Program-made: the position numbers and the translations under genes
Source: Nitrospirota bacterium
Lineage (GTDB): Bacteria; Nitrospirota; Thermodesulfovibrionia; Thermodesulfovibrionales; SM23-35
DNA: 64,000 bases
Direction: 5' to 3'
NCBI GenBank assembly: GCA_040754395.1
Contig: JBFMCL010000006.1
Coordinates: forward strand, 35,197 to 99,196
Part shown: in pieces, positions 4,013 to 49,170 of the stretch
How the letters are laid out: each line of letters opens with the position of its first letter
Position numbering within the stretch: position 1 is the first letter of the stretch
Notes under the pieces: model-generated
Told to the model about the DNA's origin: nothing
What the model saw: only the letters and a program-made list of their open reading frames with translations
The model's database searches: none

Positions 4013-4057
4013 AGGCTCTCCTTAATAGCCCTTCATTATTTTTATCGCAAGGCGATG

Positions 4058-34019: not shown

Positions 34020-35333
34020 ATGACAGCCAACCCGCATATCCTGAAAGACGGTAATCATATCGCTGTTGTAGGTGGCGGTCCCTCTGGTTCCTTTTTCAGC
34101 ATCTTTGTGCTAAAAATGGCAAAGATTATGGGAAAAGAGTTTCATATAACTGTCTTCGAGCCAAAGGATTTTACAAAAGAAGGCCCTCTCGGCTGCAACA
34201 GATGTGGCGGTATAATCTCCGAACTCCTCGTGCAGATGCTTGCAGTCGAGGGAATCAATCTTCCTGATTCCGTCGTTCAGCGAGGGATCAATGCCTACAG
34301 ACTGCATACCAATGAAGGATCTGTTGATATTGCCACACCTGCCCATGAGAAAACAATCGCAACTGTATATCGCGGGGGAGGTCCCAGGGGAACCGCGGGA
34401 ACACATAAAGAGAGCTTCGACAAATTTCTTCTTGATCTTGCGATAAAAGAGGGCGCTGTACATGAGGCGGTAAGAATAGACAGGATTGCATATACCGAGA
34501 AAGGGGCGGAATTATTTGCGAAAGAACAGAAGCTATGTGAGACGGATCTGCTGGTAGGCACGATCGGGATAAAGAGCCGGACATCCGAAGTCTTCGAAGC
34601 AATGGAATTCGGGTACAGAAGACCTGTTACCACTACTGCTTCAATAGCAGAAATAAGCATGGACGAGGCAGTCATTGCTGAATGTCTCGGGAATTCTGTG
34701 CATCTTTTTCTCCTCCCGGTCAGTAACATAAAATTTGCTGCAATGATTCCGAAGGATACGTATGTGACGGTGTGTATACTGGGAGAAGCTTTGGGAACGG
34801 AAACGGTAAGTGATTTTCTTGCACACCCGGTTGTCGGAGCGGTACTGCCTGACAGGGATCAATACTCCATTGAGTGCCGGTGTTTGCCGCTGATGAATGT
34901 GGGGGCGCCGAAAACGCCTTTTCATGAGAGAGTAGTAATATGCGGCGATGCAGGCTCAACAAGGCTCTTTAAGGACGGTCTTGGTGCCTCTTATATAATG
35001 GGGAAAGCAGCTGCAAAGACTGTGGTGTTTCATGGTGCGGGCAAGAGTGATTTCCAAAGGGAGTATTATCCGGTATACAAGAGCCTGATCGTTGATAACC
35101 GTTACGGAAGATTCCTTTTTAGAGTCACAGATATTGTAAAAAATCATTCATTGCTGACAAAAGGCATGCTGGAAGTTGTAAGAAAGGAACAAGCCGAGGC
35201 AGAGAAACCGGCGGTATTAAGTTCGATCCTCTGGGACATGTTTACCGGGAACGAGCGTTACAGGAATATATTCATGAGGTCTCTGCACGTTCCCATGTTT
35301 TATGACCTGCTGAAAGGAATAGCAAGAGTATAA
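34020..35333 (+). CDS. FAD-dependent oxidoreductase (geranylgeranyl-reductase-like)
   Basis: HIAVVGGGPSGSFFS dinucleotide-binding motif. ICGDAGS near the C-terminal FAD motif. 437 aa. Confidence 0.72.
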   Translation: MTANPHILKDGNHIAVVGGGPSGSFFSIFVLKMAKIMGKEFHITVFEPKDFTKEGPLGCNRCGGIISELLVQMLAVEGINLPDSVVQRGINAYRLHTNEGSVDIATPAHEKTIATVYRGGGPRGTAGTHKESFDKFLLDLAIKEGAVHEAVRIDRIAYTEKGAELFAKEQKLCETDLLVGTIGIKSRTSEVFEAMEFGYRRPVTTTASIAEISMDEAVIAECLGNSVHLFLLPVSNIKFAAMIPKDTYVTVCILGEALGTETVSDFLAHPVVGAVLPDRDQYSIECRCLPLMNVGAPKTPFHERVVICGDAGSTRLFKDGLGASYIMGKAAAKTVVFHGAGKSDFQREYYPVYKSLIVDNRYGRFLFRVTDIVKNHSLLTKGMLEVVRKEQAEAEKPAVLSSILWDMFTGNERYRNIFMRSLHVPMFYDLLKGIARV

Positions 35334-35346
35334 AACAGGAGGAAAG

Positions 35347-36222
35347 ATGACAGAAGGGGAACTTGGCAAAAAATATCAGGACGGCCAGATCATTTTCAAA
35401 GAGGGTGATGCCGGGGATAAAATGTATGCAATACAGGCGGGAGGAGTAAAAATAATGAAAAAGACCCATTCCGGCGAAGTGGCTATCGCGGTTCTTGGAA
35501 CAGGGGAAATATTCGGAGAAATGGCCCTGTTCGACAAAATGCCCCGCTCTGCGACTGCGGTTGCCTCCGGTGAAACCAGGATCCTCACCATAGACAAGAC
35601 CAAGCTTTTTCAGACAATAAGCAGAGACCCGACCCTTGTGTTCAAGATTATTGAATCAATGAGCCAGAGGATAAGGAAACTTGACGAAGAATTCTCGAAG
35701 CTGAAGAAGAACAAAATAGATATTCTGAGAATATTTTCGAATCTCGAAGAGACGTGCGTGTTTATTCTGGAGGAGGCGAGAAGTTTCATCAGGGCTGACA
35801 ATGGTTCCATCATGCTCTATGATGAGGGGATTCAAAGGCTCACGATCAGGTCTGCATTCGGCACGGACTGGGAGCCGAAGATAGTCATGGGGATAGGGGA
35901 AGGAGTTGCCGGAGATGTGTTGCGAACTGGCAAATCTGAACTTATCAATAACGTTTCGATGGACCCGAGGTTTAAGTCAGGAGCAGCCAGTATTACGTCC
36001 GTATTGTGTGTTCCGCTTAAGGGGAAGAGTCAGAATCCTGGCGTGATCAACATGAGCAGAAGTTCCGAGATATTATTCACTCTCGAGGATCTGAAATTGC
36101 TGAGGTCGATAGCAATGTATGCGTCGATTGCCATTGAAAATGCCCTGAACTTTTCGAAACTCAACAATGCAACCGATGAAATTCTGAGACACGCAACGTT
36201 GCTGGACATGTGCAATCTGTAA
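35347..36222 (+). CDS. Cyclic-nucleotide-binding domain + GAF domain protein (no DNA-binding or enzymatic output visible)
   Basis: cNMP-binding signature GEIFGEMALFDKMPRSATAVA. The C-terminal half has a GAF-like pattern (DNGSIMLYDE...GVAGDV...SVLCVPL). 13 nt after the oxidoreductase gene. Confidence 0.85.
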   Translation: MTEGELGKKYQDGQIIFKEGDAGDKMYAIQAGGVKIMKKTHSGEVAIAVLGTGEIFGEMALFDKMPRSATAVASGETRILTIDKTKLFQTISRDPTLVFKIIESMSQRIRKLDEEFSKLKKNKIDILRIFSNLEETCVFILEEARSFIRADNGSIMLYDEGIQRLTIRSAFGTDWEPKIVMGIGEGVAGDVLRTGKSELINNVSMDPRFKSGAASITSVLCVPLKGKSQNPGVINMSRSSEILFTLEDLKLLRSIAMYASIAIENALNFSKLNNATDEILRHATLLDMCNL

Positions 36223-36252
36223 CAGTCTGCTGTTTGCTTTTTTTCCTGCAAA

Positions 36253-36282
36253 TGTGACCAATCTGTAATTTCCCCTGTGGTA
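36253..36282 (+). promoter_or_regulatory. Heptamer-repeat element, copy 1 (upstream of sORF / CHASE2 cyclase operon)
   Basis: TGTGACC aatc TGTAATT tcccc TGTGGTA. The third heptamer embeds TGgTAGAGT (extended -10-like). Confidence 0.6.
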
Positions 36283-36311
36283 GAGTGTAAATAAAGAAAA
36301 AGGACTCATCG

Positions 36312-36416
36312 ATGTACGAGAAAATGCTCAGGGCACTTCTCCTTGATGATATAAAGGAAAAGGCAGATAGCCGGGATAAAGGGCAGCCCCTGAAGCAACT
36401 CTCTTCAAAAGAATGA
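36312..36416 (+). CDS. Candidate sORF (34 aa) downstream of element copy 1
   Basis: AAAAAGGA 8 nt before ATG. MYEKMLRALLLDDIKEKADSRDKGQPLKQLSSKE. No other support. Confidence 0.2.
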   Translation: MYEKMLRALLLDDIKEKADSRDKGQPLKQLSSKE

Positions 36417-36513
36417 GCCAATGTGTCTCTTGTTTTTCATGCAGCAATAGTATATGATTTGATACAAATAATGGAATAGTATTTGACTGGCTTTTTATCC
36501 TGTGGGGGGAGCC

Positions 36514-37503
36514 ATGTTAAAGGAGTTCATAAAGGAACGCCTTGTAAAGGCTTTCATTGTAGGAGCCATAATCGGCATGGCCGGGATAGGAATTAACCTG
36601 TTCCCTGCAGGAACTGCACTTGAGGAAAATTTCGGCCTTGACCTGCTGTTCACAATGAGAGGAACAAGGGTGCCTCCTGAAGATGTTGTTATTGTGAGCA
36701 TAGATAAGGAGTCGGCTGACAGACTCGACCTGCCTGAAGATCCCAGAAAATGGCCACGATTCCTCCATGCAAAGCTCATTGATGTGATAACTGCTGCAGG
36801 AGCAGCAGTTATTGTCTTCGATGTGAATTTTTCCGAGCCACGCTCGTCCCAGGAGGATAATAAACTTGCCGATGCAATGAGGAGATCCGGCAATACGGTA
36901 CTTTGTGAGTTCATGCAGATAGAAAATGTTCCCATAGACAATAAAACAGGCTCCACATACGGAGAAATGAATATTGCAAAAGTGGTGCCCCCGATACCGT
37001 CTCTTGCCCGGGCAGCATTTGCACGTGCCCCTTTCCCCCTTCCCAAAATATCAAATAAAGTCAGTCAATACTGGACATTCATGACATCAGCGGGAGACAA
37101 GCCCACGCTGCCCGTAGTCAGTTTCCAGATATTTGTCATGCAATATCACGTGGACTTTATTCGTCTTATGGATCGTGTCAATGCATATCATGCGGAAAAG
37201 CTCCGGCAAAGCCATAAGGATTTTGTGAAAAACCGGGGGATTGAAAAAGTCATACGTGATATCCGCCACATCTTTCAGGGAGATCCTCACATTGGTGCAG
37301 AAATGGTGAAAGAGCTGGAAAGTTCAAGAATACCATTTGATAATAAAACAAAGCATGCCGTGCTGCATTCTCTCATTACCCTCTATAAGGGAAATTCTCA
37401 CAGCCAGTATCTGAACTTCTACGGGCCTGCACGGACTATTACGACCTTGCCGTATTACATGGTATTGCAGCATGGTCTGCCCCCGGGAATACCTTGCCGG
37501 TGA
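36514..37503 (+). CDS. CHASE2-domain class III nucleotidyl cyclase, N-terminal fragment (frameshifted gene)
   Basis: N-terminal TM helix, then a CHASE2-like extracytoplasmic domain (...YLNFYGPARTITTLPYYMVLQHG). Stops at 37501-37503 in the middle of the domain. Confidence 0.8.
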   Translation: MLKEFIKERLVKAFIVGAIIGMAGIGINLFPAGTALEENFGLDLLFTMRGTRVPPEDVVIVSIDKESADRLDLPEDPRKWPRFLHAKLIDVITAAGAAVIVFDVNFSEPRSSQEDNKLADAMRRSGNTVLCEFMQIENVPIDNKTGSTYGEMNIAKVVPPIPSLARAAFARAPFPLPKISNKVSQYWTFMTSAGDKPTLPVVSFQIFVMQYHVDFIRLMDRVNAYHAEKLRQSHKDFVKNRGIEKVIRDIRHIFQGDPHIGAEMVKELESSRIPFDNKTKHAVLHSLITLYKGNSHSQYLNFYGPARTITTLPYYMVLQHGLPPGIPCR

Positions 37504-38789
37504 ATCTGAAGGGAAAAGCGGTATTTGTCGGTCTTTCACAGCTGTCGCCAATAGATCAGAAAGAGAGCTTTTACACCGTATATTCGGAAAAACATGGTCT
37601 CGATATCAGCGGTATTGAAATTGCAGCTACGGCATTTGCCAATCTGCTGGAGAACAGGCCTGTGCAACCAATTGATTTCCGGGTCTATCTTGGAGTAATT
37701 TTTGTGTGGGGAATTGTGATCGGCTTTATCTGTAAAAGGTTTAGCACTACTGCAGCATTTTTCAGTATGACGGGATTGGTTACCGTATATCTCATATTTG
37801 CCATTTTCCAGTTTAAGAGCCGGGGCATCTGGTACCCTGTGATTACCCCCTGCGTTTTGCAGACAACGCTGGCACTCTTCAGCGGTGTTTTATGGAATTA
37901 CATAGAAGTGAAACAGGAAAGGCAGAATATCAAAAAGGCTTTCGGTTATTATCTCCCGAACGACGTTGTTGAAAGGCTGCTGACGGATATTGACGGAATC
38001 CATGACAGTCATCAGGTTGTCTACGGGATATGCATGTCTACAGATGCCGAACAGTATTCATTTCTTTCAGAAGTAATGGAACCTAAAGAGCTGGGAAATT
38101 TTATGAACAGGTACTATGAGCTTATATTCAAACCGATAAGACAGCACGGAGGGATTGTCTCAGATGTGGTCGGAGATTCTGTGCTTGCAATATGGGTGTC
38201 AGCCAAGCCGGAAATTGTTCTCAGGAAAGAGGCATGTATTGCGGCACTCGACATCCAGAGGACCATATATAATTTTAACAGGACGTCTCAGACACACATG
38301 CTCCCCACACGCATCGGCCTGCATTCCGGAAAGATACTTCTCGGCAATATAGGGGCATTCGATCATTACGAATACAGACCGGTCGGGGACATCGTCAATA
38401 CCGCAAGCCGTCTGGAGGGTCTTAACAAATATTTAGGTACCCAGGTGCTTGTAACGCGGGACGTGGTAAGTCAGCTGGATGGATTTTATACAAGGGGACT
38501 CGGAGAATTCAAACTTGCGGGAAAAACAAAACCTGTTGAGGTTTATGAGTTGATCTGCAGGGAAGAAGAGGTGACTGAAAAGCAGAGAAGGGCAGGTGAA
38601 ATCTTCCAGCAGGCAATAAGGGCTTTCAGAAATCAGTCTTGGGACAGGGCTATTAATCTTTTCAAAGAACACATGGATTATCTCGGCGATGATGGACCGT
38701 CGCAATTTTTTGTGCAAATGTGCCGTGATAAAAGGGAAGTGGCAAAGAAGGAGTTATGGGATGGTGTAGTCGAAATAGGCAGGAAATAA
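37494..38789 (+). CDS. CHASE2 (C-terminal part) + 3 TM + class III adenylate/guanylate cyclase domain, C-terminal fragment
   Basis: Begins NLKGKAVFVGLSQ...GIEIAATAFANLL (end of CHASE2). Three TM helices. Cyclase core (STDAEQYS, VVGDSVLAIW, GDIVNTASRLEG). No ATG start; the frame is open from 37389. Confidence 0.8.
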   Translation: MPVNLKGKAVFVGLSQLSPIDQKESFYTVYSEKHGLDISGIEIAATAFANLLENRPVQPIDFRVYLGVIFVWGIVIGFICKRFSTTAAFFSMTGLVTVYLIFAIFQFKSRGIWYPVITPCVLQTTLALFSGVLWNYIEVKQERQNIKKAFGYYLPNDVVERLLTDIDGIHDSHQVVYGICMSTDAEQYSFLSEVMEPKELGNFMNRYYELIFKPIRQHGGIVSDVVGDSVLAIWVSAKPEIVLRKEACIAALDIQRTIYNFNRTSQTHMLPTRIGLHSGKILLGNIGAFDHYEYRPVGDIVNTASRLEGLNKYLGTQVLVTRDVVSQLDGFYTRGLGEFKLAGKTKPVEVYELICREEEVTEKQRRAGEIFQQAIRAFRNQSWDRAINLFKEHMDYLGDDGPSQFFVQMCRDKREVAKKELWDGVVEIGRK

Positions 38790-38832
38790 TTACCAGCATT
38801 TAGTTTCAGATAAAAAGGGAGAGGAGAATATC

Positions 38833-41800
38833 ATGAAACGTGCCAGCATCATACTTGTTTTCATCGCTGTTCCGCTGTTGTATCTTGTGCTGCCTCATAG
38901 TGCATCTGCACATACATGCGAGAAGTGGATAGCAAAAGCAGTATCAGTCCAGGGAGATGTGCAGACTCTGAAAGAGGGTGAAACCCAGTGGCTTTCAGTA
39001 AAAATGCAGGATACCTTCTGTACGGGTGATATGATCAGGGTGATGGAACAGGGCAGAGCTGCTGTTGTTTTGTGGAACGGGGTTATTATGCGGTTTGATC
39101 AGAATACCACGGTCACGTTCAACGGGGTAGAAAATGAGAATACCTCTCTGATAGACATACTGAAAGGAGTGGTAAATTTTTTCAGCAGGTGGCCAAGATC
39201 ACTTAATATCACTACACCTTTTGTAAACGGTATTGTTGAAGGAACAGAATTTCTTGCAAAAGTCGGAAGTGACAATACAGTGCTGTCAGTATTTGAAGGA
39301 AAGGTGCTGGCAACAAACAAGGCTGGAAGTTTGACGCTTACATCAGGACAGACCGCGGTTGCCGCACATGATCAGCCCCCGGTTCTGCAAACAGTTGTTC
39401 GTCCGCGGGATGCGGTGCAGTGGGCGCTCTATTACCCTCCTGTTATATACATTCGTGAGGAGAAATTGCGGGAGGATGATCCGCGACATATGACCCAGCG
39501 CGCGTCATCGCTGCTGCATGTAGGACGGGTTGATGAAGCAAAAGCTGAAATCGGGCGCGCCCTGAACGCAGATCCGGGAAACAGCCTGGCATTTGCGCTT
39601 CAGTCCGTAATTGCCACAGTACAGAATGAAAAGGAAAAGGCGCTCAGTCTCGCGAAACAGGCGGTTGAAGCTGACAAAAAATCTGCTGCCGCATATATTT
39701 CACTGTCCTATGCACGACAGGCACATTTCGATCTTGAAGGTTCACTGATAAGTCTCCAGGAAGCGGTTAAAGCCGAACCTGAAAACGCCATTGCGTGGGC
39801 AAGGTTGTCAGAAATCCGTCTTTCTTTCGGTGAAATTGATAAAGCAGTGAAGGCGGCAGACAAAGCTTTTGAACTTAATCCGCATATTGCACGTACACAT
39901 ACTGTTCGCGGCTTTGCGTATCTGACTCAGGTGAAGATAAGAGAGTCCATGGAACTTTTCGAAAAGGCGATTCTACTTGATCAGGCAGATCCCCTGCCGA
40001 GGCTCGGACTCGGATTGGCAAATATCCGCAAGGGATGCCTGCAGGAGGGAAGAAGGCAGATAGAGATTGCAGTGAGTCTGGATCCTGACAACTCACTCAT
40101 CAGGAGCTATCTCGGCAAAGCATACTACGAGGAGAAACAGGATAGAATGTCAGAAGACCAGTATGCAATGGCGAAGGAATTCGATCCGCGGGACCCCACG
40201 CCATTTTTCTATGATGCGATCAGGAAACAGAGCATCAATTGTCCGGTCGAAGCATTGCATGATATGCAGAAGGCAATTGAACTGAACGACAACCGGGCGG
40301 TCTACCGCTCCAGGATGCTGCTCGATGCAGACCTTGCTGCAAGGAGTGCAAGCCTTGCAAGGATTTACAGTGACCTTGGGTTCGAACAGCTTGCACTGGT
40401 TGAAGGTTGGAAGTCTGTCAATAATGATTCTGCCGATTTTTCCGGCCACAGGTTTCTTGCGGACACCTATTCGGCATTGCCGCGACATGAGATTGCACGC
40501 GTGAGTGAACTGCTCCAGTCCCAACTGCTTCAACCGATAAACATCATACCTGTTCAGCCTCGTCTTGCTGAAAGTGACCTGAGGATACTCGAAGGTGCGG
40601 GACCTTCAGACCTTTCTTTTAATGAGTTCAATCCGTTGTTCAACCGGAACGGGGTTGGTGTCCAGATGAGCAGCATAATTGGTGAGAACAAGACATTCGG
40701 AGATGAAATCGTGGTATCGGCTGTTCATGGAAAGTTATCCTTAAGCGCGGGACAATTTCATTATGAGACGGAAGGATGGCGCGAGAATAACGACCAGCAG
40801 CAGAATATTTCCAATATATTTGCTCAGGTTGAGCTTTCTGCCAAGACAAGCATTCAGGCTGAATTCAGAATGAAAAACATAAAGAGCGGGGACCTTGACG
40901 TCTTTTTTGACCCGGATAGATTTGTCCCAGATTGGCGGTATCAAGAAGAGAAAAATTCTCTGCGCTTCGGTTTGCATCATAATATTACGCCTGGCTCTGA
41001 CTTAATCGCATCGTTGATTTATCTGGACGGAGACTATGAGTTCCTCATGACAGGATATGAAGGCGATATTGATGAAAAAGGTTATTTGGGAGAGATACAA
41101 CATCTTTATAATACTGAGAGATTCAGTCTCATTACCGGAGCTGGATATTATAATGAAGACCGTAAGGATAAGGAAAGTATGCCTGAATTTGATTACTCTT
41201 CTTCCACAGAAAACAAACCCAGTCATAAAAACCTTTACATGTATGCCAAAATCAATGTGCTCACAAATTTAACCCTAACTGTCGGTGCAAGCGCTGATTT
41301 TCTCAAAGGCTGGAATGCAGCCCAAAAAATAGAGAAAGATCAGCTTAATCCGAAATTCGGGATAGCCTGGAATCCTCTCGTAAATACTACGCTGAGAATG
41401 GCAGTCTTCAGAACACTTAACAGGGCGATAATAACAGACCAGACGATTGAGCCCACTCAGGTCTCAGGATTCAATCAGTTCTATGACGATACCGAAGGAG
41501 CGGAAGCATGGCGTTATGGCATCGGTTTGGATCAGAAGTTCTCTTCCAGGCTGTATGGTGGTGCCGAGTTTTCGAAACGGGAGCTGGAAGTTCCGGGGGT
41601 TACATATGGTGCAACAGGAACAAGACTTATCGAAGGTGAGTGGGACGAGCAGCTTGGAAGGGCGTATCTGTACTGGACACCCCATGGATGGGTTTCATTA
41701 AGCACGGAATACCAGTATGAGCGCTTCGAGATGCCTGAGGACTTTGCTGCTCGGATGTTTACGGAGCTGAATACCCACAGGGTCAAGTTTGGAATGAACG

Positions 41801-42093
41801 TTTTTCATCCATCGGGTATCAGCGTCAAACTAAATCCTATATATGTGAATCAGCATGGAGATTTTATGAAATTCAATCCGGAAACATTCGAAACGTATTT
41901 CGAATCTGACAAGGATACTTTCTGGGTTTTTGATGCTTCTGTGAGTTACAGGTTTCCCAAAAGGAGGGGTATGCTCACACTGGCTGCCAAAAACCTGTTC
42001 GACGAGGATTTCAAATTTCAGGACACTGATCCGAGAAACCCGAGGATATGGCCGGACCGTTTGATATACGGAAAAATCACCCTTGTATTTTAG
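38833..42093 (+). CDS. Secreted FecR-domain + TPR + C-terminal beta-barrel (outer-membrane-like) fusion protein
   Basis: Signal peptide (...PHSASA/HT). FecR-like beta-sandwich region (aa 30-190). TPR-like helical repeats (aa 215-520). About 520 aa of alternating-hydrophobic beta-strand pattern ending ...GKITLVF (terminal Phe as in OMPs). Confidence 0.75.
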   Translation: MKRASIILVFIAVPLLYLVLPHSASAHTCEKWIAKAVSVQGDVQTLKEGETQWLSVKMQDTFCTGDMIRVMEQGRAAVVLWNGVIMRFDQNTTVTFNGVENENTSLIDILKGVVNFFSRWPRSLNITTPFVNGIVEGTEFLAKVGSDNTVLSVFEGKVLATNKAGSLTLTSGQTAVAAHDQPPVLQTVVRPRDAVQWALYYPPVIYIREEKLREDDPRHMTQRASSLLHVGRVDEAKAEIGRALNADPGNSLAFALQSVIATVQNEKEKALSLAKQAVEADKKSAAAYISLSYARQAHFDLEGSLISLQEAVKAEPENAIAWARLSEIRLSFGEIDKAVKAADKAFELNPHIARTHTVRGFAYLTQVKIRESMELFEKAILLDQADPLPRLGLGLANIRKGCLQEGRRQIEIAVSLDPDNSLIRSYLGKAYYEEKQDRMSEDQYAMAKEFDPRDPTPFFYDAIRKQSINCPVEALHDMQKAIELNDNRAVYRSRMLLDADLAARSASLARIYSDLGFEQLALVEGWKSVNNDSADFSGHRFLADTYSALPRHEIARVSELLQSQLLQPINIIPVQPRLAESDLRILEGAGPSDLSFNEFNPLFNRNGVGVQMSSIIGENKTFGDEIVVSAVHGKLSLSAGQFHYETEGWRENNDQQQNISNIFAQVELSAKTSIQAEFRMKNIKSGDLDVFFDPDRFVPDWRYQEEKNSLRFGLHHNITPGSDLIASLIYLDGDYEFLMTGYEGDIDEKGYLGEIQHLYNTERFSLITGAGYYNEDRKDKESMPEFDYSSSTENKPSHKNLYMYAKINVLTNLTLTVGASADFLKGWNAAQKIEKDQLNPKFGIAWNPLVNTTLRMAVFRTLNRAIITDQTIEPTQVSGFNQFYDDTEGAEAWRYGIGLDQKFSSRLYGGAEFSKRELEVPGVTYGATGTRLIEGEWDEQLGRAYLYWTPHGWVSLSTEYQYERFEMPEDFAARMFTELNTHRVKFGMNVFHPSGISVKLNPIYVNQHGDFMKFNPETFETYFESDKDTFWVFDASVSYRFPKRRGMLTLAAKNLFDEDFKFQDTDPRNPRIWPDRLIYGKITLVF

Positions 42094-42171: not shown

Positions 42172-42372
42172 ATGAAAGACAGAGCAAGTTTGATAGTATA
42201 TTTAAATGAGGCTGGTGAGGTCATTCATGTAAGAAATGTCGATCTTTCGGAAGTGGAATATGATAAGGAAGAACGGGACAGGAACAGGACTATGATCGGG
42301 GCAAGAATATTTACGCCGAACGGCTGCTGCTGGAGACTCACACCAACTGGATGGAAGTGTTTGCCCTGTTAA
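42172..42372 (+). CDS. 66-aa peptide with acidic N-terminal part and Cys/Trp-rich C-terminus
   Basis: GGGGGG SD 5 nt before ATG. MKDRASLIVYLNEAGEVIHVRNVDLSEVEYDKEERDRNRTMIGARIFTPNGCCWRLTPTGWKCLPC. A 12-bp hairpin follows. Confidence 0.55.
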   Translation: MKDRASLIVYLNEAGEVIHVRNVDLSEVEYDKEERDRNRTMIGARIFTPNGCCWRLTPTGWKCLPC

Positions 42373-42387
42373 GAGTATTGGTAAAAA

Positions 42388-42753: not shown

Positions 42754-43455
42754 ATGGAAACCATAACTATACATTACCTTTTCACATTGCCGAATGGAAA
42801 GCAGGAAGTGATGGAAATACTTCTTGATGCCGAGACTCTCGACTTAATGAATAAAATCCCTGAAAGTCTTCCTGAATGGACCATGCTTGATTACCATCAG
42901 TGCTCCAACTGTCTTCTTGCTCTCGATACGCATAAAAACTGTCCCATAGCGGTTCACTTTGTAAAACTCCTTGAAATATTCGAAAGCCTCTTGTCGTTTG
43001 ATACAATTCATGTCGATATTTTTACTGCTCAGCGTGTTACTACCATGGATACAAGTGCCCAGAAAGGCGCCAGTTCCTTAATGGGACTTATTATGGCGAC
43101 AAGCGGCTGTCCACACATGGCGTTCTTCAAGCCCATGGCACGTTTTCACCTGCCCCTTTCGAGTGCGGAAGAGACAGTATATCGTGCTGCATCGATGTAT
43201 CTGCTTGCTCAGTATTTCCGGAAAAAGGAAGGGCTGAAAATAGATCTTGAGCTTAATGGACTCAAGGAACTGTACAGAAACATACATATAATTAATAAAT
43301 CCATGTCAGGGCGCCTTCGTGACAGGTACAAAAAAGATGTCGGACCGAATTCCCTCACGATCCTTGATTCCTTTGCACAAACTCTCACCATGGTAATCGA
43401 GGAACAGCTTGATGAGCTGCGGTATCTCTTCAGACCATATCTCCTTGAACCCTGA
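42754..43455 (+). CDS. Hypothetical 233-aa protein with CxxC-x10-C and a fourth conserved-looking Cys
   Basis: GGAGAG SD 6 nt before ATG. HQCSNCLLALDTHKNCP and SGCPHM. Mostly helical C-terminal half. No family recognised. Confidence 0.6.
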   Translation: METITIHYLFTLPNGKQEVMEILLDAETLDLMNKIPESLPEWTMLDYHQCSNCLLALDTHKNCPIAVHFVKLLEIFESLLSFDTIHVDIFTAQRVTTMDTSAQKGASSLMGLIMATSGCPHMAFFKPMARFHLPLSSAEETVYRAASMYLLAQYFRKKEGLKIDLELNGLKELYRNIHIINKSMSGRLRDRYKKDVGPNSLTILDSFAQTLTMVIEEQLDELRYLFRPYLLEP

Positions 43456-43501
43456 ATGCACAAAAGACAGAAAACCTTTTTCCAGAAGCGTATACCCAAT
43501 C

Positions 43502-43531
43502 TGTGACTAATCCGTAAGCAGTCTTGTGATA
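43502..43531 (+). promoter_or_regulatory. Heptamer-repeat element, copy 2 (upstream of sORF / STAND-SARP regulator)
   Basis: TGTGACT aatc CGTAAGC agtct TGTGATA. The third heptamer embeds TGaTAAATT. Confidence 0.6.
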
Positions 43532-43552
43532 AATTTACACAAGGGAGGTAGC

Positions 43553-43621
43553 ATGCATCATGCAGCATCCTCTGGTCGAAATGTCCGGCCAGAGGTCTCT
43601 CTCTCAAAGCGGGGCAGGTAA
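43553..43621 (+). CDS. Candidate leader sORF (22 aa) downstream of element copy 2
   Basis: AGGGAGG 4 nt before ATG. MHHAASSGRNVRPEVSLSKRGR. The stop codon sits in the loop of the hairpin GCGGGGCAG...CTGCCCCG (43609-43636). Confidence 0.25.
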   Translation: MHHAASSGRNVRPEVSLSKRGR

Positions 43622-43868
43622 TCATTATCTGCCCCGTGGAAATACATCATTTCAGGTGACACGCCTTCAATTGTTGCTGAAAATAGCCAGCCTCAGCAGT
43701 ATCCATGCCCCTGTGATATCCATTGACAGGGAAAACAGTGTGTGATATTTTTTACACATGTCGGTTGTTTGCGTTGTCTCAGGTTCTCCGGAAAGAAACC
43801 AAAGAGAGCCAGGTGAGCATGACGGATTAAGGATACCACGGGAAAGACTATTTTTCTGCTCCAACTGA

Positions 43869-46800
43869 TTGGGGGAACACCTTGGGGTGAAAAAGGCGTA
43901 CATTTCTGGCAAAGAACCCGTAGTTTTTAAAATCACAAAGCCACATATTGAAGGGATATTCGTCCGGGATAGACTATTCGATGTAATCGAAAAAGCAAGG
44001 GAATTCCCTGTACTTTTCGTAACAAGCCCTCCCGGTTCCGGAAAGACAATACTTGTATCAAGCTATCTTGAATCTCATAAATTGCCTTTTATTTGGTATA
44101 GGGTCGACGAAGGAGATGAAGATATCGCAACCTTCTTTTTTTATATGGGACTTGCGATAAAAAGGGCATTTCCTGCGAAGCGCTTCTCTTTGCCCATATT
44201 TTCACCTGAATATACGGGAAGCGCATCTGTTTTTTCGAAGCGTTATTTTGAGCATATCTTTAGCAGGGTCGCCCCTCCTTTCATGATTGTTCTGGATAAT
44301 TTTCAGGCAATTCCCGATGATTCTCAGTTCCAGGAAATTTTGTGCCATATATTTGATGAAATTCCTGAAGGGATCAACATAACCGTTATCAGCAGAAAAG
44401 GCGTCCCGGCTTCATTTGCAGCTCTGCAGGTGAATAAAAGAATCTGTCCTGTTGACTGGAGTCACATCCGTTTCTCATACGATGAAGTGAAGGCTTTTGT
44501 AACGCAGAAGGCAGGGGAGATATCTGATGAGCACATTCATTTCCTGTATCAGAAGACCGATGGCTGGGCGGCGGGTCTTGTCCTGATGCTTGAAAGCCTG
44601 AGGAAAGAGAAATTTGCATATACGGGATTGAATCATCTGTCATTTGGCAATATATTTGACTATTTTGCACATGAGACTTTCCGGGAACTTGACAAAGCTA
44701 CGCGTATGTTTCTTCTGAAGACTTCATGCATGCATGTACTGACAGCTGATACTGCGGACAAACTCACCGGTCTCGGCAATTCTGAAAGAATACTGAACAA
44801 TCTTAATAGAAACCATTATTTTACCGAAATATATCCGCAGGAACGGTCGGTATATTATTATCATCCTCTTTTCAGGGAATTTCTCCAGTCAAGAGCCAAA
44901 GAAGTATTTCCCCATGAAGAAATTCTGGGCATAAAGCAGCATGCAGCGGTTCTTCTGGAGGATTCCGGAAGAATGGAAGACGCAATCGGTCTTTTCAGGG
45001 AGTCAGGAGATATTGAAGGAATTGTCCGTATTATTCAGAAATGGGCTGGAACGCTGGTAGAGCAGGGCAGGTACCAGACACTTTCCAACTGGCTGGAATA
45101 TCTCCCAAAAGATGTACTCTCAGATAATCCGGGGATTCTCTACTGGATGGGCGTGTGTCGTTTGCCCTTCAATCCGGCCGAAAGCCAGATCCACTTTGAG
45201 GTTGCGTTTCACAAATTCAACAAAAGGAATAAAGGTCCGGAAACATTCCTCTCATGGGCAGGAGTTGTTGATTCCATCATGTATGGTCATGAGGGTCTGA
45301 AATCGCTTGACCGATGGTTTCCCGTCATTGATGATCTGACCAAAAAATACAGGAATTTTCATGATGACCATGTCGAGTCAGGGATATTGTGCAGCCTTGT
45401 CAGAGCGCTCTCTCTCAGGCGGCCGGCGAAATCCAGAATGGAAATGTGGGCAGACCGTATACAAACATTTATTCAGGAGAGCAGGGATGTTTCTGTAAAA
45501 ATCAGTGCTCTGACAACGCTGGGATGCTATTTCTACAGTGAAGGTAATTTCCAGAAAATGAACATTGTCCTTGAATCCCTGCATGAATTAATCAAACGAC
45601 GAGAAGTGTCTCCTGTGACCAGATTAAACGTTGAATGGTTGAAAGCAGCATACTTCAATGTGATGTCGCAGCATGATGAGTGTCGGAGGGTCGTGTCCGG
45701 AGGCCTGGAACTGGCTGCCGCACTCAAGATTTACGTCATGGAGAGCATGCTTCTTGGACATGGTGTCCTTAGTTCGCTGAAGAATGAAGATTTCGAAACT
45801 GCACATGAATATCTGAAGAGAATGGCGTATGAATTAAGCTTCTTAAAGACATGGGAGGCGAGTTTCTATCATTATTGTTCTGCCTGGGAGGCATTGTACA
45901 GGAATAATCTCGCCCAGGCTCTCACTCATTCCGAACATTGCCTGAGATTGTGTGAACACGCGGGCAATCCCTGGACAATGTCATGTGCACATCTGCTTGC
46001 CGCGAACGTATCTTTTGTTTTTGAGGAGATAAAACAGGCTTTCTGTCATATCAGACAGGCTTTTTCGATCGGGAAACGCAGCGGGAACGAATTCACTCCT
46101 TACATATGCCACTTAACAGAGGCATATTTTCTCTTCAAACAGGGCAAGGAGGGTCTGGCAATAAAAGCTGTGCGAAGGGGCTTGAAAAAGGGAAGAGAAA
46201 AGGGTTTTGTCAGTCTTTTTATGTCTGTTAAGGGAGTGATGGAAACTATTTCTTCAAAGGCGCTTGAGCATGAAATAGAAGTTCCGTATGTGAAATCACT
46301 GATATGCAGCAATAGAATTCTTCCGGATACCACTTCTCTGGAAAATGAGCATTGGCCATGGCCTTTGAAGATATTTACCCTTGGACGGTTCGGAATACAA
46401 AAAAATGGATCTGTGCTGCGTTTTTCAGGCAAGGTTCAGCAGAGACCATTGGCGATGCTCAAGGCCCTGATAGCTTTTGGAGGAAGAGAAGTCCCGGAGG
46501 ACAGGATCATCGACATCCTCTGGCCCGAATCAGACGGAGATGCTGCACATAGTGCGTTTACCACAACCCTTCACCGCCTGCGCCAGCTTCTCGGGGTTGA
46601 GCAGGCAGTGGTGTTTCACGAAGGAAAAGTATTCCTTGACCCGCGGTATTGCTGGGTGGATACGTGGGCGTTTGAGAGGATTCTCGGAAAAGTTGATGCG
46701 TCATGGGACTCGGTATTTTCAGAGGGAAAAAAGGGGGATTCCAATCTCATTGAACTTGCCGAGAAAGCGGTAAGGATGTATTCCGGTGCGTTTCTTCCGG

Positions 46801-47123
46801 GCGACCGTGAGTCGTGGATGATATCAATACGCGAGAGATTGCGAAATAAATATCTGCGAAACATCAGCAGGCTGGGAATGTACTGGGAGACGACCGGCAA
46901 AATGGAAAAGGCAGTCGAATGTTATCACAAAGGACTGGAAGTGGATGATCTTGCGGAGGAATTCTACCAGCGCCTTATGAAGTGTTACCGGAGGATGGGG
47001 AGGCGATCGGAAGCGATCGGTGTGTATAAACGGTGTTTTCAGGTTCTTGATTCCGTGCTCGGGATTGAACCGTCACCTGAAACAGAAGCACTTATAAGAC
47101 CCCTTATGCGCAAAATGGAATGA
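43869..47123 (+). CDS. STAND NTPase regulator: MalT-like P-loop NTPase + helical/TPR sensor region + C-terminal SARP module (OmpR-type wHTH + BTAD)
   Basis: Walker A VTSPPGSGKT. Walker B FMIVLDNF. C-terminus LKIFTLGRFGIQKNG...RPLAMLKALIAFGGREVPEDRIIDILWP...LHRLRQLLG (wHTH), then YSGAFLPGD...ECYHKGLEVDDLAEEFYQRLMKCYRRMGRRSEAIGVYKRCFQVLDSVLGIEPSPET (BTAD). No in-frame ATG before the P-loop; the start is TTG 43869 or GTG 43887. Confidence 0.8.
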   Translation: MGEHLGVKKAYISGKEPVVFKITKPHIEGIFVRDRLFDVIEKAREFPVLFVTSPPGSGKTILVSSYLESHKLPFIWYRVDEGDEDIATFFFYMGLAIKRAFPAKRFSLPIFSPEYTGSASVFSKRYFEHIFSRVAPPFMIVLDNFQAIPDDSQFQEILCHIFDEIPEGINITVISRKGVPASFAALQVNKRICPVDWSHIRFSYDEVKAFVTQKAGEISDEHIHFLYQKTDGWAAGLVLMLESLRKEKFAYTGLNHLSFGNIFDYFAHETFRELDKATRMFLLKTSCMHVLTADTADKLTGLGNSERILNNLNRNHYFTEIYPQERSVYYYHPLFREFLQSRAKEVFPHEEILGIKQHAAVLLEDSGRMEDAIGLFRESGDIEGIVRIIQKWAGTLVEQGRYQTLSNWLEYLPKDVLSDNPGILYWMGVCRLPFNPAESQIHFEVAFHKFNKRNKGPETFLSWAGVVDSIMYGHEGLKSLDRWFPVIDDLTKKYRNFHDDHVESGILCSLVRALSLRRPAKSRMEMWADRIQTFIQESRDVSVKISALTTLGCYFYSEGNFQKMNIVLESLHELIKRREVSPVTRLNVEWLKAAYFNVMSQHDECRRVVSGGLELAAALKIYVMESMLLGHGVLSSLKNEDFETAHEYLKRMAYELSFLKTWEASFYHYCSAWEALYRNNLAQALTHSEHCLRLCEHAGNPWTMSCAHLLAANVSFVFEEIKQAFCHIRQAFSIGKRSGNEFTPYICHLTEAYFLFKQGKEGLAIKAVRRGLKKGREKGFVSLFMSVKGVMETISSKALEHEIEVPYVKSLICSNRILPDTTSLENEHWPWPLKIFTLGRFGIQKNGSVLRFSGKVQQRPLAMLKALIAFGGREVPEDRIIDILWPESDGDAAHSAFTTTLHRLRQLLGVEQAVVFHEGKVFLDPRYCWVDTWAFERILGKVDASWDSVFSEGKKGDSNLIELAEKAVRMYSGAFLPGDRESWMISIRERLRNKYLRNISRLGMYWETTGKMEKAVECYHKGLEVDDLAEEFYQRLMKCYRRMGRRSEAIGVYKRCFQVLDSVLGIEPSPETEALIRPLMRKME

Positions 47124-47181
47124 ATGCATGATCCCTGTAGAATGTCATCATTGTCTGTCTGTTCGCAGATTATCCTCTATG

Positions 47182-47211
47182 TGTGACTCATCCGTGACCT
47201 TCCATATGATA
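47182..47211 (+). promoter_or_regulatory. Heptamer-repeat element, copy 3 (upstream of the secreted-protein gene)
   Basis: TGTGACT catc CGTGACC ttcca TATGATA. The third heptamer embeds TGaTAAAGA. Confidence 0.6.
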
Positions 47212-47299
47212 AAGAAATACACACTATGGCTTATTCCAGCAGGAATGAGATAAAGGGGGAGATGTTCAGTGCAAACGAAGCAAAACAAGGAGGACAAAA

Positions 47300-47686
47300 A
47301 TGTCTGTCAATCATGAAGCAAGAAGATTACTCTCTGTCATCCTCGTATCCGTTGCGGTGATCTTGTCGGGTATGGCATATGTGCACGCAGATTCATCTGT
47401 ATCTGTAATATCAGGAAGGCTGGCAGCGAAATATGACAGCCAGAACGGTACCGTAACAGCCATGGTAGCGGGATATTGCGAGAGCCAGCCGGTGACAATA
47501 GGCCCCTCAACATGGAAAATTGCAGAATGGGAGTTTGCCAACATGAATGCTGCAGACATTGCAAGAACCCTGTGTGGAGAAAATCATACCCTGCAGCGGG
47601 TAACGAAATCCTCCAATAACGGAAGGGAAATTGTCGCTGATATTGTCATGGTAAAAAATAAACCGGAGGGTCTGGCTGGACGATAA
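47300..47686 (+). CDS. Small secreted protein (128 aa, 2 Cys), unknown function
   Basis: AGGAGG SD. Signal peptide ...SGMAYVHA/DS. No recognised family. Confidence 0.6.
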   Translation: MSVNHEARRLLSVILVSVAVILSGMAYVHADSSVSVISGRLAAKYDSQNGTVTAMVAGYCESQPVTIGPSTWKIAEWEFANMNAADIARTLCGENHTLQRVTKSSNNGREIVADIVMVKNKPEGLAGR

Positions 47687-47955
47687 CCCGGACAGAAAAA
47701 AGATGAATAATCGCGGCTCAATACGTTTTTTCTTTCCGGTATTACGTGGATGTATTCCTGGTATTATAAAGTGATGCTTCACGAACCCTCATAATCTGAG
47801 ACACGAAGAATACCAGAGCATATACTGTGTCACTGCGTGTTCCTGGTTTTGCGTGTACGGCCTTTTTTGCGCAGTGTCTGCGTACAAGTCGTATACAAGG
47901 GTGCAGAGTAACTCTGCATGGTATTATCTGAAAGGTAAGGAATGCAAAAGAAGCG

Positions 47956-48723
47956 ATGAGAATCAGGGTTATCGGATGTTCGGGTGCTGAATTTCCCGGA
48001 CACAACGCTCCCAGTTTTGTGCTTGATGATGAAATAGTATTCGATGCGGGGAGTATTACTGATGTGCTCGACAAGAAAGCCCAGTTCAGAATAAAGAATA
48101 TCTTTATTACACATGCACATCTTGACCACATAAAAAGCATCCCATTTCTTGCTGATAACGTTATTGTAGGAAGAAAAAAGAACCGTATCAATATACTGAG
48201 TATTGCTCAGGTGATCAGAACCATCAAACGCCATCTTTTCAACAGTTCTGTGTGGCCGGATTTTACAATTATCCCCAATCCTGAACATGCAATCATGAAT
48301 CTTATTACCCTGAAAGCCGGTCTGACACTCAGGATAAACCGTTATTCGGTAACTCCATACAGGGTGAAACATCCTGTTCCCGCTGTCGGTTATCTGGTAG
48401 AAGACGATAGAAACAAAAGATTCTTCTACACGGGTGATACCGGCCCCACACCACAAACATGGAAAAACATAGGCAGGAGAAGGCTCAACTGCCTTATTAT
48501 TGACGTCTCTTTTCCTGATGCTATGAGGGGTATGGCGGTGAAAACCGGACATCTTACTCCCGCGTTGTTACGGCAGGAACTGATGATGATGCACGACATG
48601 CCCGAAAGGGTATATATTAGTCATCCGAAACCCCAGTATATCAGAACCATCAGAAACCAGATCTCACGGTTGAAGCTGAACAATGTGAGGATATTAAGGG
48701 AAGGAGACATTGTTAAGATATGA
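47956..48723 (+). CDS. MBL-fold hydrolase resembling class II 3',5'-cyclic-nucleotide phosphodiesterase
   Basis: IRVIGCSGAEFPG...FVLDDEIVFDAGS...IFITHAHLDHIKSIPFL. The HxHLDH block is the core of the class II PDE signature. 255 aa. Confidence 0.7.
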   Translation: MRIRVIGCSGAEFPGHNAPSFVLDDEIVFDAGSITDVLDKKAQFRIKNIFITHAHLDHIKSIPFLADNVIVGRKKNRINILSIAQVIRTIKRHLFNSSVWPDFTIIPNPEHAIMNLITLKAGLTLRINRYSVTPYRVKHPVPAVGYLVEDDRNKRFFYTGDTGPTPQTWKNIGRRRLNCLIIDVSFPDAMRGMAVKTGHLTPALLRQELMMMHDMPERVYISHPKPQYIRTIRNQISRLKLNNVRILREGDIVKI

Positions 48724-48850
48724 GTATATATCCGGGCCTCAAAACAAATCAGAAAAACCCCCGCATTATTGCCTGTCATTCCGTTTAACCTTCTGTTACA
48801 CAGGTGCATCTCTTTGTCAAAAACATTGTCAGGATATCAGGCCCGTTATA

Positions 48851-48880
48851 CGTGACCCATATGTGACCGGATGCCTGATA
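48851..48880 (+). promoter_or_regulatory. Heptamer-repeat element, copy 4 (upstream of the small basic protein)
   Basis: CGTGACC cata TGTGACC ggatg CCTGATA. The third heptamer embeds TGaTATCCT. Flanked by a 12-bp inverted repeat (48831-48842 / 48873-48884). Confidence 0.55.
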
Positions 48881-48966
48881 TCCTAAGCCCAGGAAAAGTT
48901 CAGTCGGAGTTGAACACACAATATTTCAATCGTATGACGCGGACAAAAACGAACAAAGGGGGCTCT

Positions 48967-49170
48967 GTGGAAAGTTATATACTCCGCATTTACCGTCGAC
49001 AGGGGGACAATCCGATGAATTTCATCGGCATTCTCGAAGAGACTGGCACGGAAGAAAGAAAGTCGTTTACCAATTTGAATGAACTCTGGGATATCCTCAA
49101 ATCACTCAAGAAAAGAGAAACGGGAAGGCAGAGAGATTATACTCAGAGAAGAACGTCAACCAGGGGATGA
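48967..49170 (+). CDS. Small basic hypothetical protein
   Basis: AAGGGGG 4 nt before GTG at 48967 gives VESYILRIYRRQGDNPMNFIGILEETGTEERKSFTNLNELWDILKSLKKRETGRQRDY... The alternative starts, ATG 48934 or 48871, lack an SD. 48871 lies inside the upstream element. Confidence 0.45.
   Translation: MESYILRIYRRQGDNPMNFIGILEETGTEERKSFTNLNELWDILKSLKKRETGRQRDYTQRRTSTRG

Follow-up and report, generated by a model that had tools for sequence, protein, structure and literature searches.

Do genes for the synthesis, perception and removal of a cyclic nucleotide monophosphate (cNMP) that lie side by side with genes for an outer-membrane protein, a large regulator and several small proteins form one signalling system, or are they merely neighbours? 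This question is raised by eleven open reading frames (ORFs), all on the + strand, found between 34.0 and 49.2 kb of a 64,000-nucleotide (nt) stretch of DNA, here called the window, from a Nitrospirota bacterium of the order Thermodesulfovibrionales (NCBI assembly GCA_040754395.1, contig JBFMCL010000006.1, positions 35,197 to 99,196 of the forward strand). An original prediction made from the letters of this DNA had seen in them a self-contained cNMP and envelope signalling island of unusual composition. All the ORFs that it listed exist with the boundaries it had assigned, and most of its domain assignments were upheld by hidden Markov model searches (Pfam and NCBIfam); the observation is confirmed and its interpretation is partly supported. 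We consider it probable that the locus is a modular trans-envelope cNMP signalling system of the NsrA/CyaK type, known from Sinorhizobium meliloti. Judging from its sequence, the core of the locus, a CHASE2 nucleotide cyclase and a FecR–TPR–β-barrel protein, has the NsrA/CyaK architecture and is of a known kind, and this pair is widespread well beyond rhizobia. In what follows, labels such as L001 and the P0143 contig designate compared loci and contigs outside the window.

An outer-membrane protein paired with a cyclase

At the centre of the locus is the gene of an NsrA-like outer-membrane protein of 1086 amino acids (aa) (38833-42093, + strand), with a signal peptide, a FecR domain, a TPR region and a predicted C-terminal β-barrel whose last residue is Phe. 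FecR (E 7e-11) and multiple TPR matches were found by Pfam, and the barrel scores 24.8 bits with TonB_dep_Rec_b-barrel, below the cut-off of 27, the same family matching most of the homologues. The gene starts after a gap of 43 nt from the stop codon of the cyclase gene, so that the predicted secreted FecR–TPR–β-barrel partner just after the cyclase is indeed there. The protein has more than 6900 homologues, of which the best 120 are full length and 54-68% identical, and its relatives carry the label Thermodesulfovibrionales. A scan of one genome per species gave 80 full-length barrel-gene loci, distributed over Nitrospirota, Desulfobacterota, Gammaproteobacteria, Rokubacteria, Spirochaetia, Binatia and others (more than seven phyla). 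The ORFs of these loci were searched with the window proteins, a locus being regarded as well-flanked if it extended at least 3 kb on both sides of the barrel gene. A CHASE2 cyclase is encoded within 10 kb of the barrel gene in 73 of 84 loci and directly adjacent to it in 40 of the 51 well-flanked ones.

The pairing of FecR-domain genes with CHASE2 receptors had been described as recurrent and functionally unexplained. Its recurrence is borne out by these counts, while the second half of the statement does not hold, since NsrA–CyaK has been studied. According to two reports, NsrA is an outer-membrane receptor required to perceive a proteinaceous plant signal via the inner-membrane CHASE2 cyclases CyaK and CyaD1/D2 (PMC7529298, PMC13001267). 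A FecR-domain gene is also found beside cyaD1 (PMC5498481), and in Burkholderia a LysM–FecR protein partners a CHASE2 kinase (PMC5192318). When plasmids were searched by tblastn, the 1086-aa protein matched pSymB megaplasmids of Sinorhizobium. In S. meliloti, the match is a "FecR domain-containing protein" of 1190 aa, and behind its gene come ORFs for CHASE2 and cyclase domains; by position and size, not by the annotation of the record, we take these genes to be nsrA–cyaK. In BLASTP, the two proteins align with E 4e-14 and 22% identity over 497 aa, covering FecR and TPR, and with E 5e-6 over the C-terminal barrel region. The idea that an envelope cue would be relayed to the cyclase is therefore supported by a conserved pair and by the NsrA–CyaK precedent; such a relay would depend on a presumed contact between FecR/TPR and CHASE2.

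A cyclase that probably does not make cyclic AMP

The second member of the pair (36502-38789, + strand) consists of one transmembrane segment, a periplasmic CHASE2 domain, three further transmembrane segments and a class III cyclase domain. CHASE2 (E 4e-19, 36502-37503) and Guanylate_cyc (E 1e-12, 37494-38789) were matched by Pfam in separate, overlapping frames, which upholds the prediction of a frameshifted membrane CHASE2 class III cyclase as the synthase. Comparison by tblastn with the intact 733-aa orthologue of L003 located the single frameshift at a C5G3 run, in the interval 37467-37500, and the two halves, 53% and 65% identical to this orthologue, are otherwise intact. Because the cyclase genes of several related loci in long-read metagenome-assembled genomes are similarly split, the shift is as likely to stem from the assembly as from a real mutation. 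In L033, L065, L068, L075 and L168, metagenome assemblies that we assume from isolate names to be long-read, the FecR–TPR–barrel gene, too, is spread over two or three frames, which shows that in data of this type the assembly commonly introduces frameshifts into these long genes. On pSymB of S. meliloti R14 (CP130053.1; L002, 8955-11422), the CHASE2 and cyclase domains lie 3' of the nsrA-like gene in different reading frames, and the CHASE2 cyclase gene is missing from the gene table of the plasmid; cyaK in this record looks frameshifted or annotated as a pseudogene.

In class III cyclases, a Lys selects adenine and a Glu selects guanine as the base of the substrate. Upon alignment to bPAC, both metal-binding Asp and the transition-state Asn and Arg are kept in the window cyclase, which would thus be catalytically competent. 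The base-selecting Lys197 and Thr267 of bPAC correspond to Asp and Arg in the window and to Lys and Ser in CyaK. Among 68 cyclases encoded beside homologous barrel genes, the first position is predominantly occupied by Asp (31), Asn (20) or Glu (9) and the second by Arg (42), Gly (11) or Ala (7), S. meliloti CyaK being the only one with Lys at the first. A subgroup of the 68 has a Glu/Gly pair, which is a feature of guanylate cyclases. The window cyclase does not have the Lys by which adenylate cyclases are recognized and, because this adenine-specifying residue is missing, its product is probably not cyclic AMP (cAMP) and may be cyclic GMP (cGMP) or another cNMP. By the same residues, it is unlikely that most barrel-paired cyclases are adenine-specific.

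A small cysteine-hairpin protein as a third partner

Directly after the barrel gene lies a gene for a 66-aa protein (42172-42372, + strand), predicted earlier as a Cys/Trp-rich peptide, that proved to be real and conserved. Its homologues share an invariant N-x-C-C-W…W-x-C…C motif, and an ORF of this CCWR subtype is found directly 3' of the barrel gene in eight of eight contexts (the window, L001, L003, L005, L038, L082, L168 and L169). The narrow subtype is rare, with 18 clusters in a set of 5.8 billion proteins and 59 representatives by profile search. It belongs to a wider family: in 30 of 75 loci, the barrel gene is followed on the same strand by an ORF of 45-130 aa in which an aromatic-rich stretch at the C-terminus is flanked by two Cys. 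This C-terminal Cys-hairpin pattern occurs in 31 of 74 ORFs in that slot (42%) vs 207 of 4287 size-matched control ORFs from the same loci (4.8%). Common to the family are an N-terminal hairpin, h-x-h-x-h-D-x-x-G-x-h-h, and a C-terminal motif, …H-N-S/T-P-x-C-x-W-…-G-x-W-…-C, and the two subtypes are joined by hhalign with a probability of 92%. No family was found in Pfam, NCBIfam or PADLOC for the 66-aa protein or its counterparts in other loci. An AlphaFold2 model consists of two β-hairpins at low confidence (predicted local distance difference test score, pLDDT, of 68) and yields no significant match in a fold search, where the TonB C-terminal domain, at E 0.7, is no evidence.

The presence of the small ORF varies with the type of cyclase: it accompanies 22 cyclases of the Asp/Asn plus Arg type and is missing beside 11, while for other types the numbers are 2 with and 22 without (nominal p 9e-6, phylogeny not being corrected for). 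None was found in the S. meliloti nsrA–cyaK locus, and no paper mentioning such a protein was found in the literature searched. Sec or lipoprotein signal peptides are present in few members (L007, L022 and L074). These patterns of sequence and neighbourhood suggest that the small protein is a third, co-inherited member of the core module, possibly an accessory subunit of the receptor or a ligand that the cell makes for it.

A cNMP receptor and its likely output enzyme

Upstream of the cyclase lies a gene for a protein with cNMP_binding (E 2e-24) and GAF (GAF_2, E 6e-18) domains (35347-36222, + strand), in which no further Pfam domain, enzymatic or DNA-binding, was found. The phosphate-binding cassette FGEMAL…RSA is intact, and there are orthologues in L003 (E 3e-139) and L102 (E 3e-112). 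The receptor had been presented as one without an output domain. Its domain content is as described, and a likely output is encoded by the co-transcribed gene just upstream, whose stop codon is 13 nt before the receptor gene. The product of that gene (34020-35333, + strand), a putative flavoprotein of 437 aa that we named FAD437, had been proposed to be an FAD oxidoreductase, which is weakly supported by a GGGPSG dinucleotide-binding motif, an NCBIfam match to the GG-reductase family (E 1e-10, below the cut-off) and weak PDB profile matches to flavin halogenases, monooxygenases and FixC. Four invariant Cys of this family, in two pairs, C59/C62 (GCNRCGG) and C286/C288 (CRC), suggest a metal or cluster site besides the dinucleotide motif.

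An orthologue of the 437-aa gene adjoins that of a cNMP_binding protein in the window, L003, L012 and L102. In L015 (14989-16896, - strand), a 636-aa ORF consists of a 437-aa homologue (phmmer E 9e-113) followed by a C-terminal cNMP_binding domain (aa 526-609). Each of the family members found is partnered with a cNMP_binding domain, whether adjacent or fused. Because of the fusion in L015, the 437-aa protein is likely the output of the receptor, and it is probably a cNMP-regulated enzyme. Elsewhere, the receptor slot beside the cyclase is filled by a Crp-type regulator (L011, L041, L052, L056 and L073).

A STAND–SARP regulator and four promoters

The largest regulator of the island (43869-47123, + strand) has a MalT-like NTPase, a TPR-like sensor region and a C-terminal SARP-type domain. 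The NCBIfam MalT model matches aa 27-423 (E 3e-59), and BTAD (PF03704) is found near the C-terminus with E 6e-20 and 72.6 bits vs a cut-off of 22.1. The winged helix preceding it is a weak Trans_reg_C match (E 0.0085, 16.6 bits, below the cut-off of 26.2). Positions 29-264 of the AfsR NCBIfam model align to aa 833-1078 (E 9e-11, below the family cut-off), which gives the order NTPase (aa 27-423), TPR-like region and SARP (aa 833-1078). The earlier description of a STAND–SARP regulator is thus borne out by the MalT-like N-terminus and BTAD, Trans_reg_C being the weak element. Homologues are encoded beside the cyclase pair in L003, L005, L015, L022, L027, L053, L168 and the P0143 contig.

Four units of the island had been said to share one promoter element, and this element is real. 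The pattern GTGACNNATNYGTRA has exactly four matches in the window, all on the + strand, intergenic and inside the island, and with one mismatch allowed there are five vs 0.9 expected. P1 (36254-36286) is upstream of the cyclase operon and consists of direct repeats with an 11-bp period, GTGACCAATCT/GTAA, followed by the extended −10 element TGGTAGAGT. P2 (43503-43535), with GTGACTAATCC/GTAA and then TGATAAATT, precedes the STAND gene. P3 (47183-47215), with GTGACTCATCC/GTGA and TGATAAAGA, is upstream of a gene for a 128-aa protein, and P4 (48852-48884), with GTGACCCATAT/GTGA and TGATATCCT, overlaps the annotated start of a 99-aa ORF. In each, the two repeats cover the −35 region and an extended −10 of the form TGnTAnnnN lies 5 nt beyond the 22-bp box. 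In SARP promoters, direct repeats 11 or 22 bp apart overlap the −35 and are near the −10 (PMC10936776), a rule that is fitted by the four window sites, which are predicted from sequence only.

The composite motif of repeats and extended −10 occurs 13 times in 2.03 Mb, comprising the window and the fetched loci, vs 0-3 times in shuffled versions. All its sites are either in loci with a STAND gene (the window, L003, L005 and L027) or directly after a DUF6901 gene (L090, L091 and L092, which are short contigs), and it is present in four of nine STAND loci vs none of the 110 remaining loci with a length of 5 kb or more. A P1-type site is also found ahead of the orthologous operon of L003 (position 6649). 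The leader between P1 and the cyclase is about 220 nt long (36287-36501) and holds only a 34-aa ORF (36312-36416), and in the corresponding leader of L003 (7198-7491) there is a 97-aa ORF that has no family match. Together with the presence of the STAND gene, this architecture makes it plausible that the STAND–SARP protein drives the four promoters, and the position of P2 suggests autoregulation. A 61-aa ORF behind P2 (43560-43745) is not conserved and was rejected as a gene. Control of the whole set of genes, as originally proposed, is not visible, because the motif precedes four units only.

Two small genes, a candidate phosphodiesterase and DUF6901

The 233-aa protein encoded at 42754-43455 (+ strand), which had been assigned to no known family, is a member of Pfam DUF6901 (PF21842; E 1e-74, 251 bits vs a cut-off of 27, model positions 1-221 of 222), a family that has no assigned function. 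The family counts 2441 homologues; in an alignment of the family, Cys50, Cys53, Cys63, Cys119 and His121 are invariant, and the protein may bind a metal or cluster. An AlphaFold2 model has a pLDDT of 62, and Foldseek found nothing below E 0.04 in the PDB, so that no fold could be assigned. In L003, L033, L088, L102 and the P0143 contig, DUF6901 adjoins a STAND gene or the cyclase pair, and in 12 of 61 eligible metagenome loci its immediate neighbour is a gene of this module. Eight distinct arrangements place it beside a cNMP-related gene, its neighbours including FHA–GAF-cyclases, GAF-cyclases, the orthologue of the hydrolase described below and cNMP_binding fusion proteins; the link between DUF6901 and cNMP is recurrent, not obligatory. 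In the fusions (L096, L107, L105, L106, L109 and L103), cNMP_binding is joined to Oxidored_q6, a domain resembling NuoB and hydrogenase small subunits, to PqqD–Peptidase_M50 or to NADH_4Fe-4S. The small Cys-hairpin protein, the cNMP-GAF protein, the 437-aa protein, DUF6901, the STAND regulator and the hydrolase were each found again in other genomes, in varying orders, next to the core pair or to cNMP genes, in keeping with the original view of the neighbourhood.

Farther downstream, a 255-aa hydrolase of the metallo-β-lactamase (MBL) fold (47956-48723, + strand) is a candidate class II-like cNMP phosphodiesterase (PDE). It has an HAHLDH motif and matches Lactamase_B_2 and PDEase_II (PF02112), the latter with 52.7 bits vs a cut-off of 23.7 over model positions 82-144 of 340 only. 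Its nearest relative in the PDB is yeast PDE1, which aligns with aa 46-141 alone (E 5e-7). The NCBIfam model cyc_nuc_deg_phdiest reaches 32 bits, far from its cut-off of 400, and similar scores are obtained with RNase Z models. The earlier description as a class-II-PDE-like hydrolase is in agreement with these matches, the PDEase_II one being above threshold over part of the model. Orthologues are encoded beside the cyclase pair in L015 and L017, and beside DUF6901 and a GAF-cyclase in L116.

Two small genes complete the set. The 128-aa protein (47300-47686, + strand) had been predicted as secreted; the ORF is there, and its N-terminus (…ILSGMAYVHA/DSS) resembles a signal peptide by eye. It has no match in Pfam, NCBIfam or PADLOC and no homologue in any fetched locus, and it is promoter P3 alone that would make its gene part of the island. 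The small basic protein is likewise present, though its annotated start (99-aa ORF, 48871-49170) is doubtful: it probably starts at Met22, because the P4 motif abuts the annotated ATG, and would be 78 aa long (48934-49170, + strand). No family match was found in Pfam, NCBIfam or PADLOC for either length. A homologous 73-aa ORF in L005 (phmmer E 5e-6), with which it shares the motif SYILRIYRR…FxGIxEE…FTNxxELxxIL, lies between the same promoter motif and the cyclase gene, close to the latter.

Conservation and surroundings of the ensemble

Taken as a set, the island is only in part what had been claimed, since its parts re-associate in other orders and the whole ensemble is confined to the nearest relatives. 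The full order HtrA–PilZ–LarC–437 aa–cNMP/GAF–cyclase–barrel–small protein–DUF6901–STAND is found only in L003/L004 (65% identity). L005 and L168 have the order STAND–small ORFs–cyclase–barrel–peptide, L015 has STAND–cyclase–barrel with an MBL orthologue and a 437-aa homologue nearby, in L017 the barrel gene is followed by an MBL orthologue, the P0143 contig carries MBL/DUF6901/STAND/114-aa ORF/PilZ/cyclase/barrel, and L102 carries 437 aa–cNMP/GAF–STAND–DUF6901. In L011, L014 and L020, the barrel gene and a small ORF are followed by hisC within about 1 kb, and because hisC directly follows there, the block of 42.1-49.2 kb in the window is a lineage-specific addition.

On the upstream side, the island is flanked by ordinary chromosomal genes, namely two HtrA genes, PilZ and LarC, and on the downstream side by hisC, hisB and a ParA-like gene, with LeuA, ribonucleotide reductase, YchF and a sigma-70 factor farther out. 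Horizontal acquisition was considered and rejected: the G + C content is 0.44-0.47 inside the island vs 0.42-0.51 outside, and housekeeping genes lie on both sides. Among the ORFs examined there was neither an integrase nor a tRNA gene, a tRNA finder not having been run. In L003, the SARP-type motif precedes (at 1162) a small PilZ-domain gene between HtrA and LarC, which may hint at cross-talk with cyclic di-GMP signalling; the PilZ gene of the window (32380-32697) has no such motif. Elsewhere in the window (1205-7440, - strand), a response-regulator–PAS–GGDEF–EAL protein of 935 aa is encoded beside a multi-PAS histidine kinase of 977 aa, and no evidence was found that ties these genes to the island. 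A 500-aa ORF (14047-15549, - strand), which overlaps a 223-aa ORF of the opposite strand, has no Pfam match at E ≤ 1e-5 and is a putative gene.

A model and its alternatives

The following scenario would account for the locus. The periplasmic FecR and TPR domains of the outer-membrane barrel protein would contact the CHASE2 domain of the inner-membrane cyclase, and a surface or envelope cue would alter cNMP synthesis through that contact, a mechanism borrowed from S. meliloti. The small Cys-hairpin protein might serve the receptor as an additional subunit or as a self-made ligand, and the nucleotide made would probably be other than cAMP, perhaps cGMP. It would be sensed by the cNMP-GAF protein, which, as adjacency and one fusion suggest, would control the co-transcribed 437-aa enzyme, and it would be degraded by the class-II-PDE-like MBL hydrolase. 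The MalT/AfsR-like STAND protein, as suggested by the architecture of the motif and its co-occurrence with the gene, would bind the 11-bp-phased repeats standing in for a −35 and activate the four extended-−10 promoters, i.e. those of the cyclase operon, its own gene and the two small-protein genes. DUF6901 might be a further cNMP-associated component.

Several points weigh against this scenario. The complete ensemble is known only in nearest relatives, where the L003/L004 contig ends inside the STAND gene, and most of the 84 loci hold only the pair. The cyclase is frameshifted in the assembly, which may reflect a broken circuit or an error of assembly. Five of the nine STAND loci, all of them more distant (L015, L022, L053, L102 and L168), have neither the motif nor a convincing variant, and in the window the 437-aa/cNMP-GAF operon, DUF6901 and the MBL gene are not preceded by it. 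Most small-protein members have no signal peptide, which speaks against a periplasmic role, and 49 of the 61 DUF6901 loci have no directly adjacent cNMP gene, most contexts being unrelated. The structure models of DUF6901 (pLDDT 62) and the small protein (pLDDT 68) are of low confidence and have no fold match. Finally, the loci are related by descent, so that Fisher tests overstate their independence.

An alternative is that only the cyclase and the barrel protein, perhaps with the small protein, cooperate and that the rest are chance neighbours between LarC and hisC in this lineage. This is supported by the absence of the 42.1-49.2 kb block from L011, L014 and L020, by the lack of accessory genes in most loci and by the unrelated contexts of most DUF6901 genes. 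However, chance would hardly lead the accessory genes to re-associate in varied orders (L005, L015, L168, P0143, L102 and L017), one promoter motif to join four units and track the STAND gene, and the 437-aa protein to be fused to cNMP_binding in L015, and we therefore judge this explanation unlikely. The same accessory genes could be viewed as a SARP-controlled cluster akin to those for ribosomally synthesized and post-translationally modified peptides, in which a 66-aa precursor would be modified by the flavoprotein, DUF6901 or MBL enzyme and exported via the barrel. Activation of biosynthetic clusters is the classical role of SARPs (PMC10936776, PMC10972967), the small protein combines a conserved N-terminal part with a C-terminus rich in Cys and Trp, and the 437-aa protein weakly resembles flavin halogenases and monooxygenases. 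Yet the constant partners of the small protein are the barrel and the cyclase, in L001, L005, L082 and L169 without 437-aa, DUF6901 or MBL genes; the eight peptide contexts have no radical-SAM, YcaO, lanthipeptide or peptidase/transporter genes in common; and the protein is conserved over its whole length and predicted to fold, all of which makes such a cluster very improbable.

We give still less credence to an anti-phage island of the Pycsar/STAND kind, with a pyrimidine cNMP, a cNMP-binding effector, a STAND NTPase and an Apyc1-like hydrolase. PADLOC does match PycC to the cyclase (E 9e-17) and a PycTIR/effector model to the cNMP-binding domain (E 2e-11), the cyclase has no adenine-specifying Lys, and MBL genes of relatives match Pfam Anti-Pycsar_Apyc1. 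The PADLOC matches, however, cover only the generic cyclase and cNMP-binding domains, PADLOC finds no TIR or pore-forming effector and no Avs/STAND defence protein, and the STAND protein ends in a SARP domain for which there are matching promoters. The coupling of a membrane CHASE2 receptor to an outer-membrane protein in many phyla, and the conserved position of the locus among housekeeping genes, also speak against defence.

A trans-envelope signalling system of the NsrA/CyaK type hence remains the reading that we prefer. It can be put in a bolder form, which is conceivable and which we hold only tentatively: NsrA-like/CHASE2 pairs of Nitrospirota, Desulfobacterota, Gammaproteobacteria and others would be three-part systems with an obligatory small protein of about 70 aa that is leaderless, has a Cys-bracketed aromatic β-hairpin at its end and acts as a subunit or self-made ligand, and the product of their cyclases, with Asp/Asn and Arg as base-selecting residues, would not be cAMP. 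In Thermodesulfovibrionales, the nucleotide would control a new flavoenzyme via the cNMP-GAF adaptor, and DUF6901 would be a further protein of the pathway.

Comparison with known systems

The closest known counterparts are NsrA–CyaK and CyaD1/CyaD2–Clr, with which the window shares a signal peptide–FecR–TPR–barrel protein of about 1100-1200 aa beside a CHASE2 cyclase and, in its relatives, a Crp-type cNMP receptor beside the cyclase; in S. meliloti, clr adjoins cyaD1. There are clear differences nonetheless. In the window, the gene order is reversed, the cyclase coming first; Asp and Arg occupy the base-selecting positions instead of the Lys and Ser of CyaK; the receptor, unlike Clr, is a cNMP-GAF protein paired with a flavoprotein-like enzyme; and a small Cys-hairpin protein, STAND–SARP, DUF6901 and a candidate PDE are added to what is found at the nsrA–cyaK locus.

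Periplasmic FecR domains also link an outer-membrane β-barrel to an inner-membrane signalling protein in FecA–FecR–FecI. In the window, however, FecR and the barrel are parts of one protein, the partner in the inner membrane is a nucleotide cyclase, and there is no match to a plug or TonB box, an anti-sigma domain or an extracytoplasmic function (ECF) sigma factor; among the proteins tested between 30.5 and 52.2 kb, no Pfam match was found for Plug, STN or ECF-sigma. In the Burkholderia 'BiofilmReg' system, a periplasmic FecR-domain protein is likewise encoded beside a CHASE2 receptor (PMC5192318), but there the partner is a peptidoglycan-binding LysM protein without a barrel and the output is a two-component kinase.

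The regulator resembles AfsR and MalT in joining an NTPase (NOD), a TPR sensor and a module of BTAD and a putative winged helix, and its promoters resemble those of SARPs in having two 11-bp-phased repeats over the −35 and near the −10 (PMC10936776). Its order NTPase–TPR–SARP is inverted with respect to the SARP–NOD–TPR of AfsR, its winged-helix match is below the Pfam threshold, its host is a member of the Nitrospirota rather than an actinomycete, and its candidate targets are genes for signalling and small proteins rather than an antibiotic cluster. The hydrolase has the MBL fold and HxHxDH motif of class II PDEs (yeast PDE1 and Vibrio CpdP) and of Apyc1-type enzymes, whereas class II PDEs have about 340-370 aa, the window protein 255, and only the metal-site segment aligns; nor is it of the Apyc1-like subfamily found in L003 and the P0143 contig. 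In contrast to Pycsar, no effector domain was found by PADLOC, and the cyclase is a CHASE2 membrane receptor, not a cytosolic enzyme.

What the locus means for trans-envelope signalling

While the core of the system was already known, what lies beyond it, i.e. the Cys-hairpin partner, the non-adenine signature, the fusion of the 437-aa protein to cNMP_binding, the association of DUF6901 with cNMP and the inverted SARP–STAND protein with its four candidate operators, together make the locus a variant. Few extracytoplasmic sensor domains are as common in bacteria as CHASE2. Its ligands were stated to be unknown in the study of BiofilmReg (PMC5192318), and in the literature searched NsrA–CyaK is the one system studied in which an outer-membrane protein feeds a cyclase. 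The small Cys-hairpin protein, which often accompanies the pair, could be the missing ligand or a subunit. A fusion and gene neighbourhoods allow two uncharacterised families, DUF6901 and the 437-aa flavoprotein-like one, to be assigned to cNMP signalling as candidate members. The locus also offers, at the sequence level, an example from outside the actinomycetes of a SARP-type STAND activator together with its likely operator sites.

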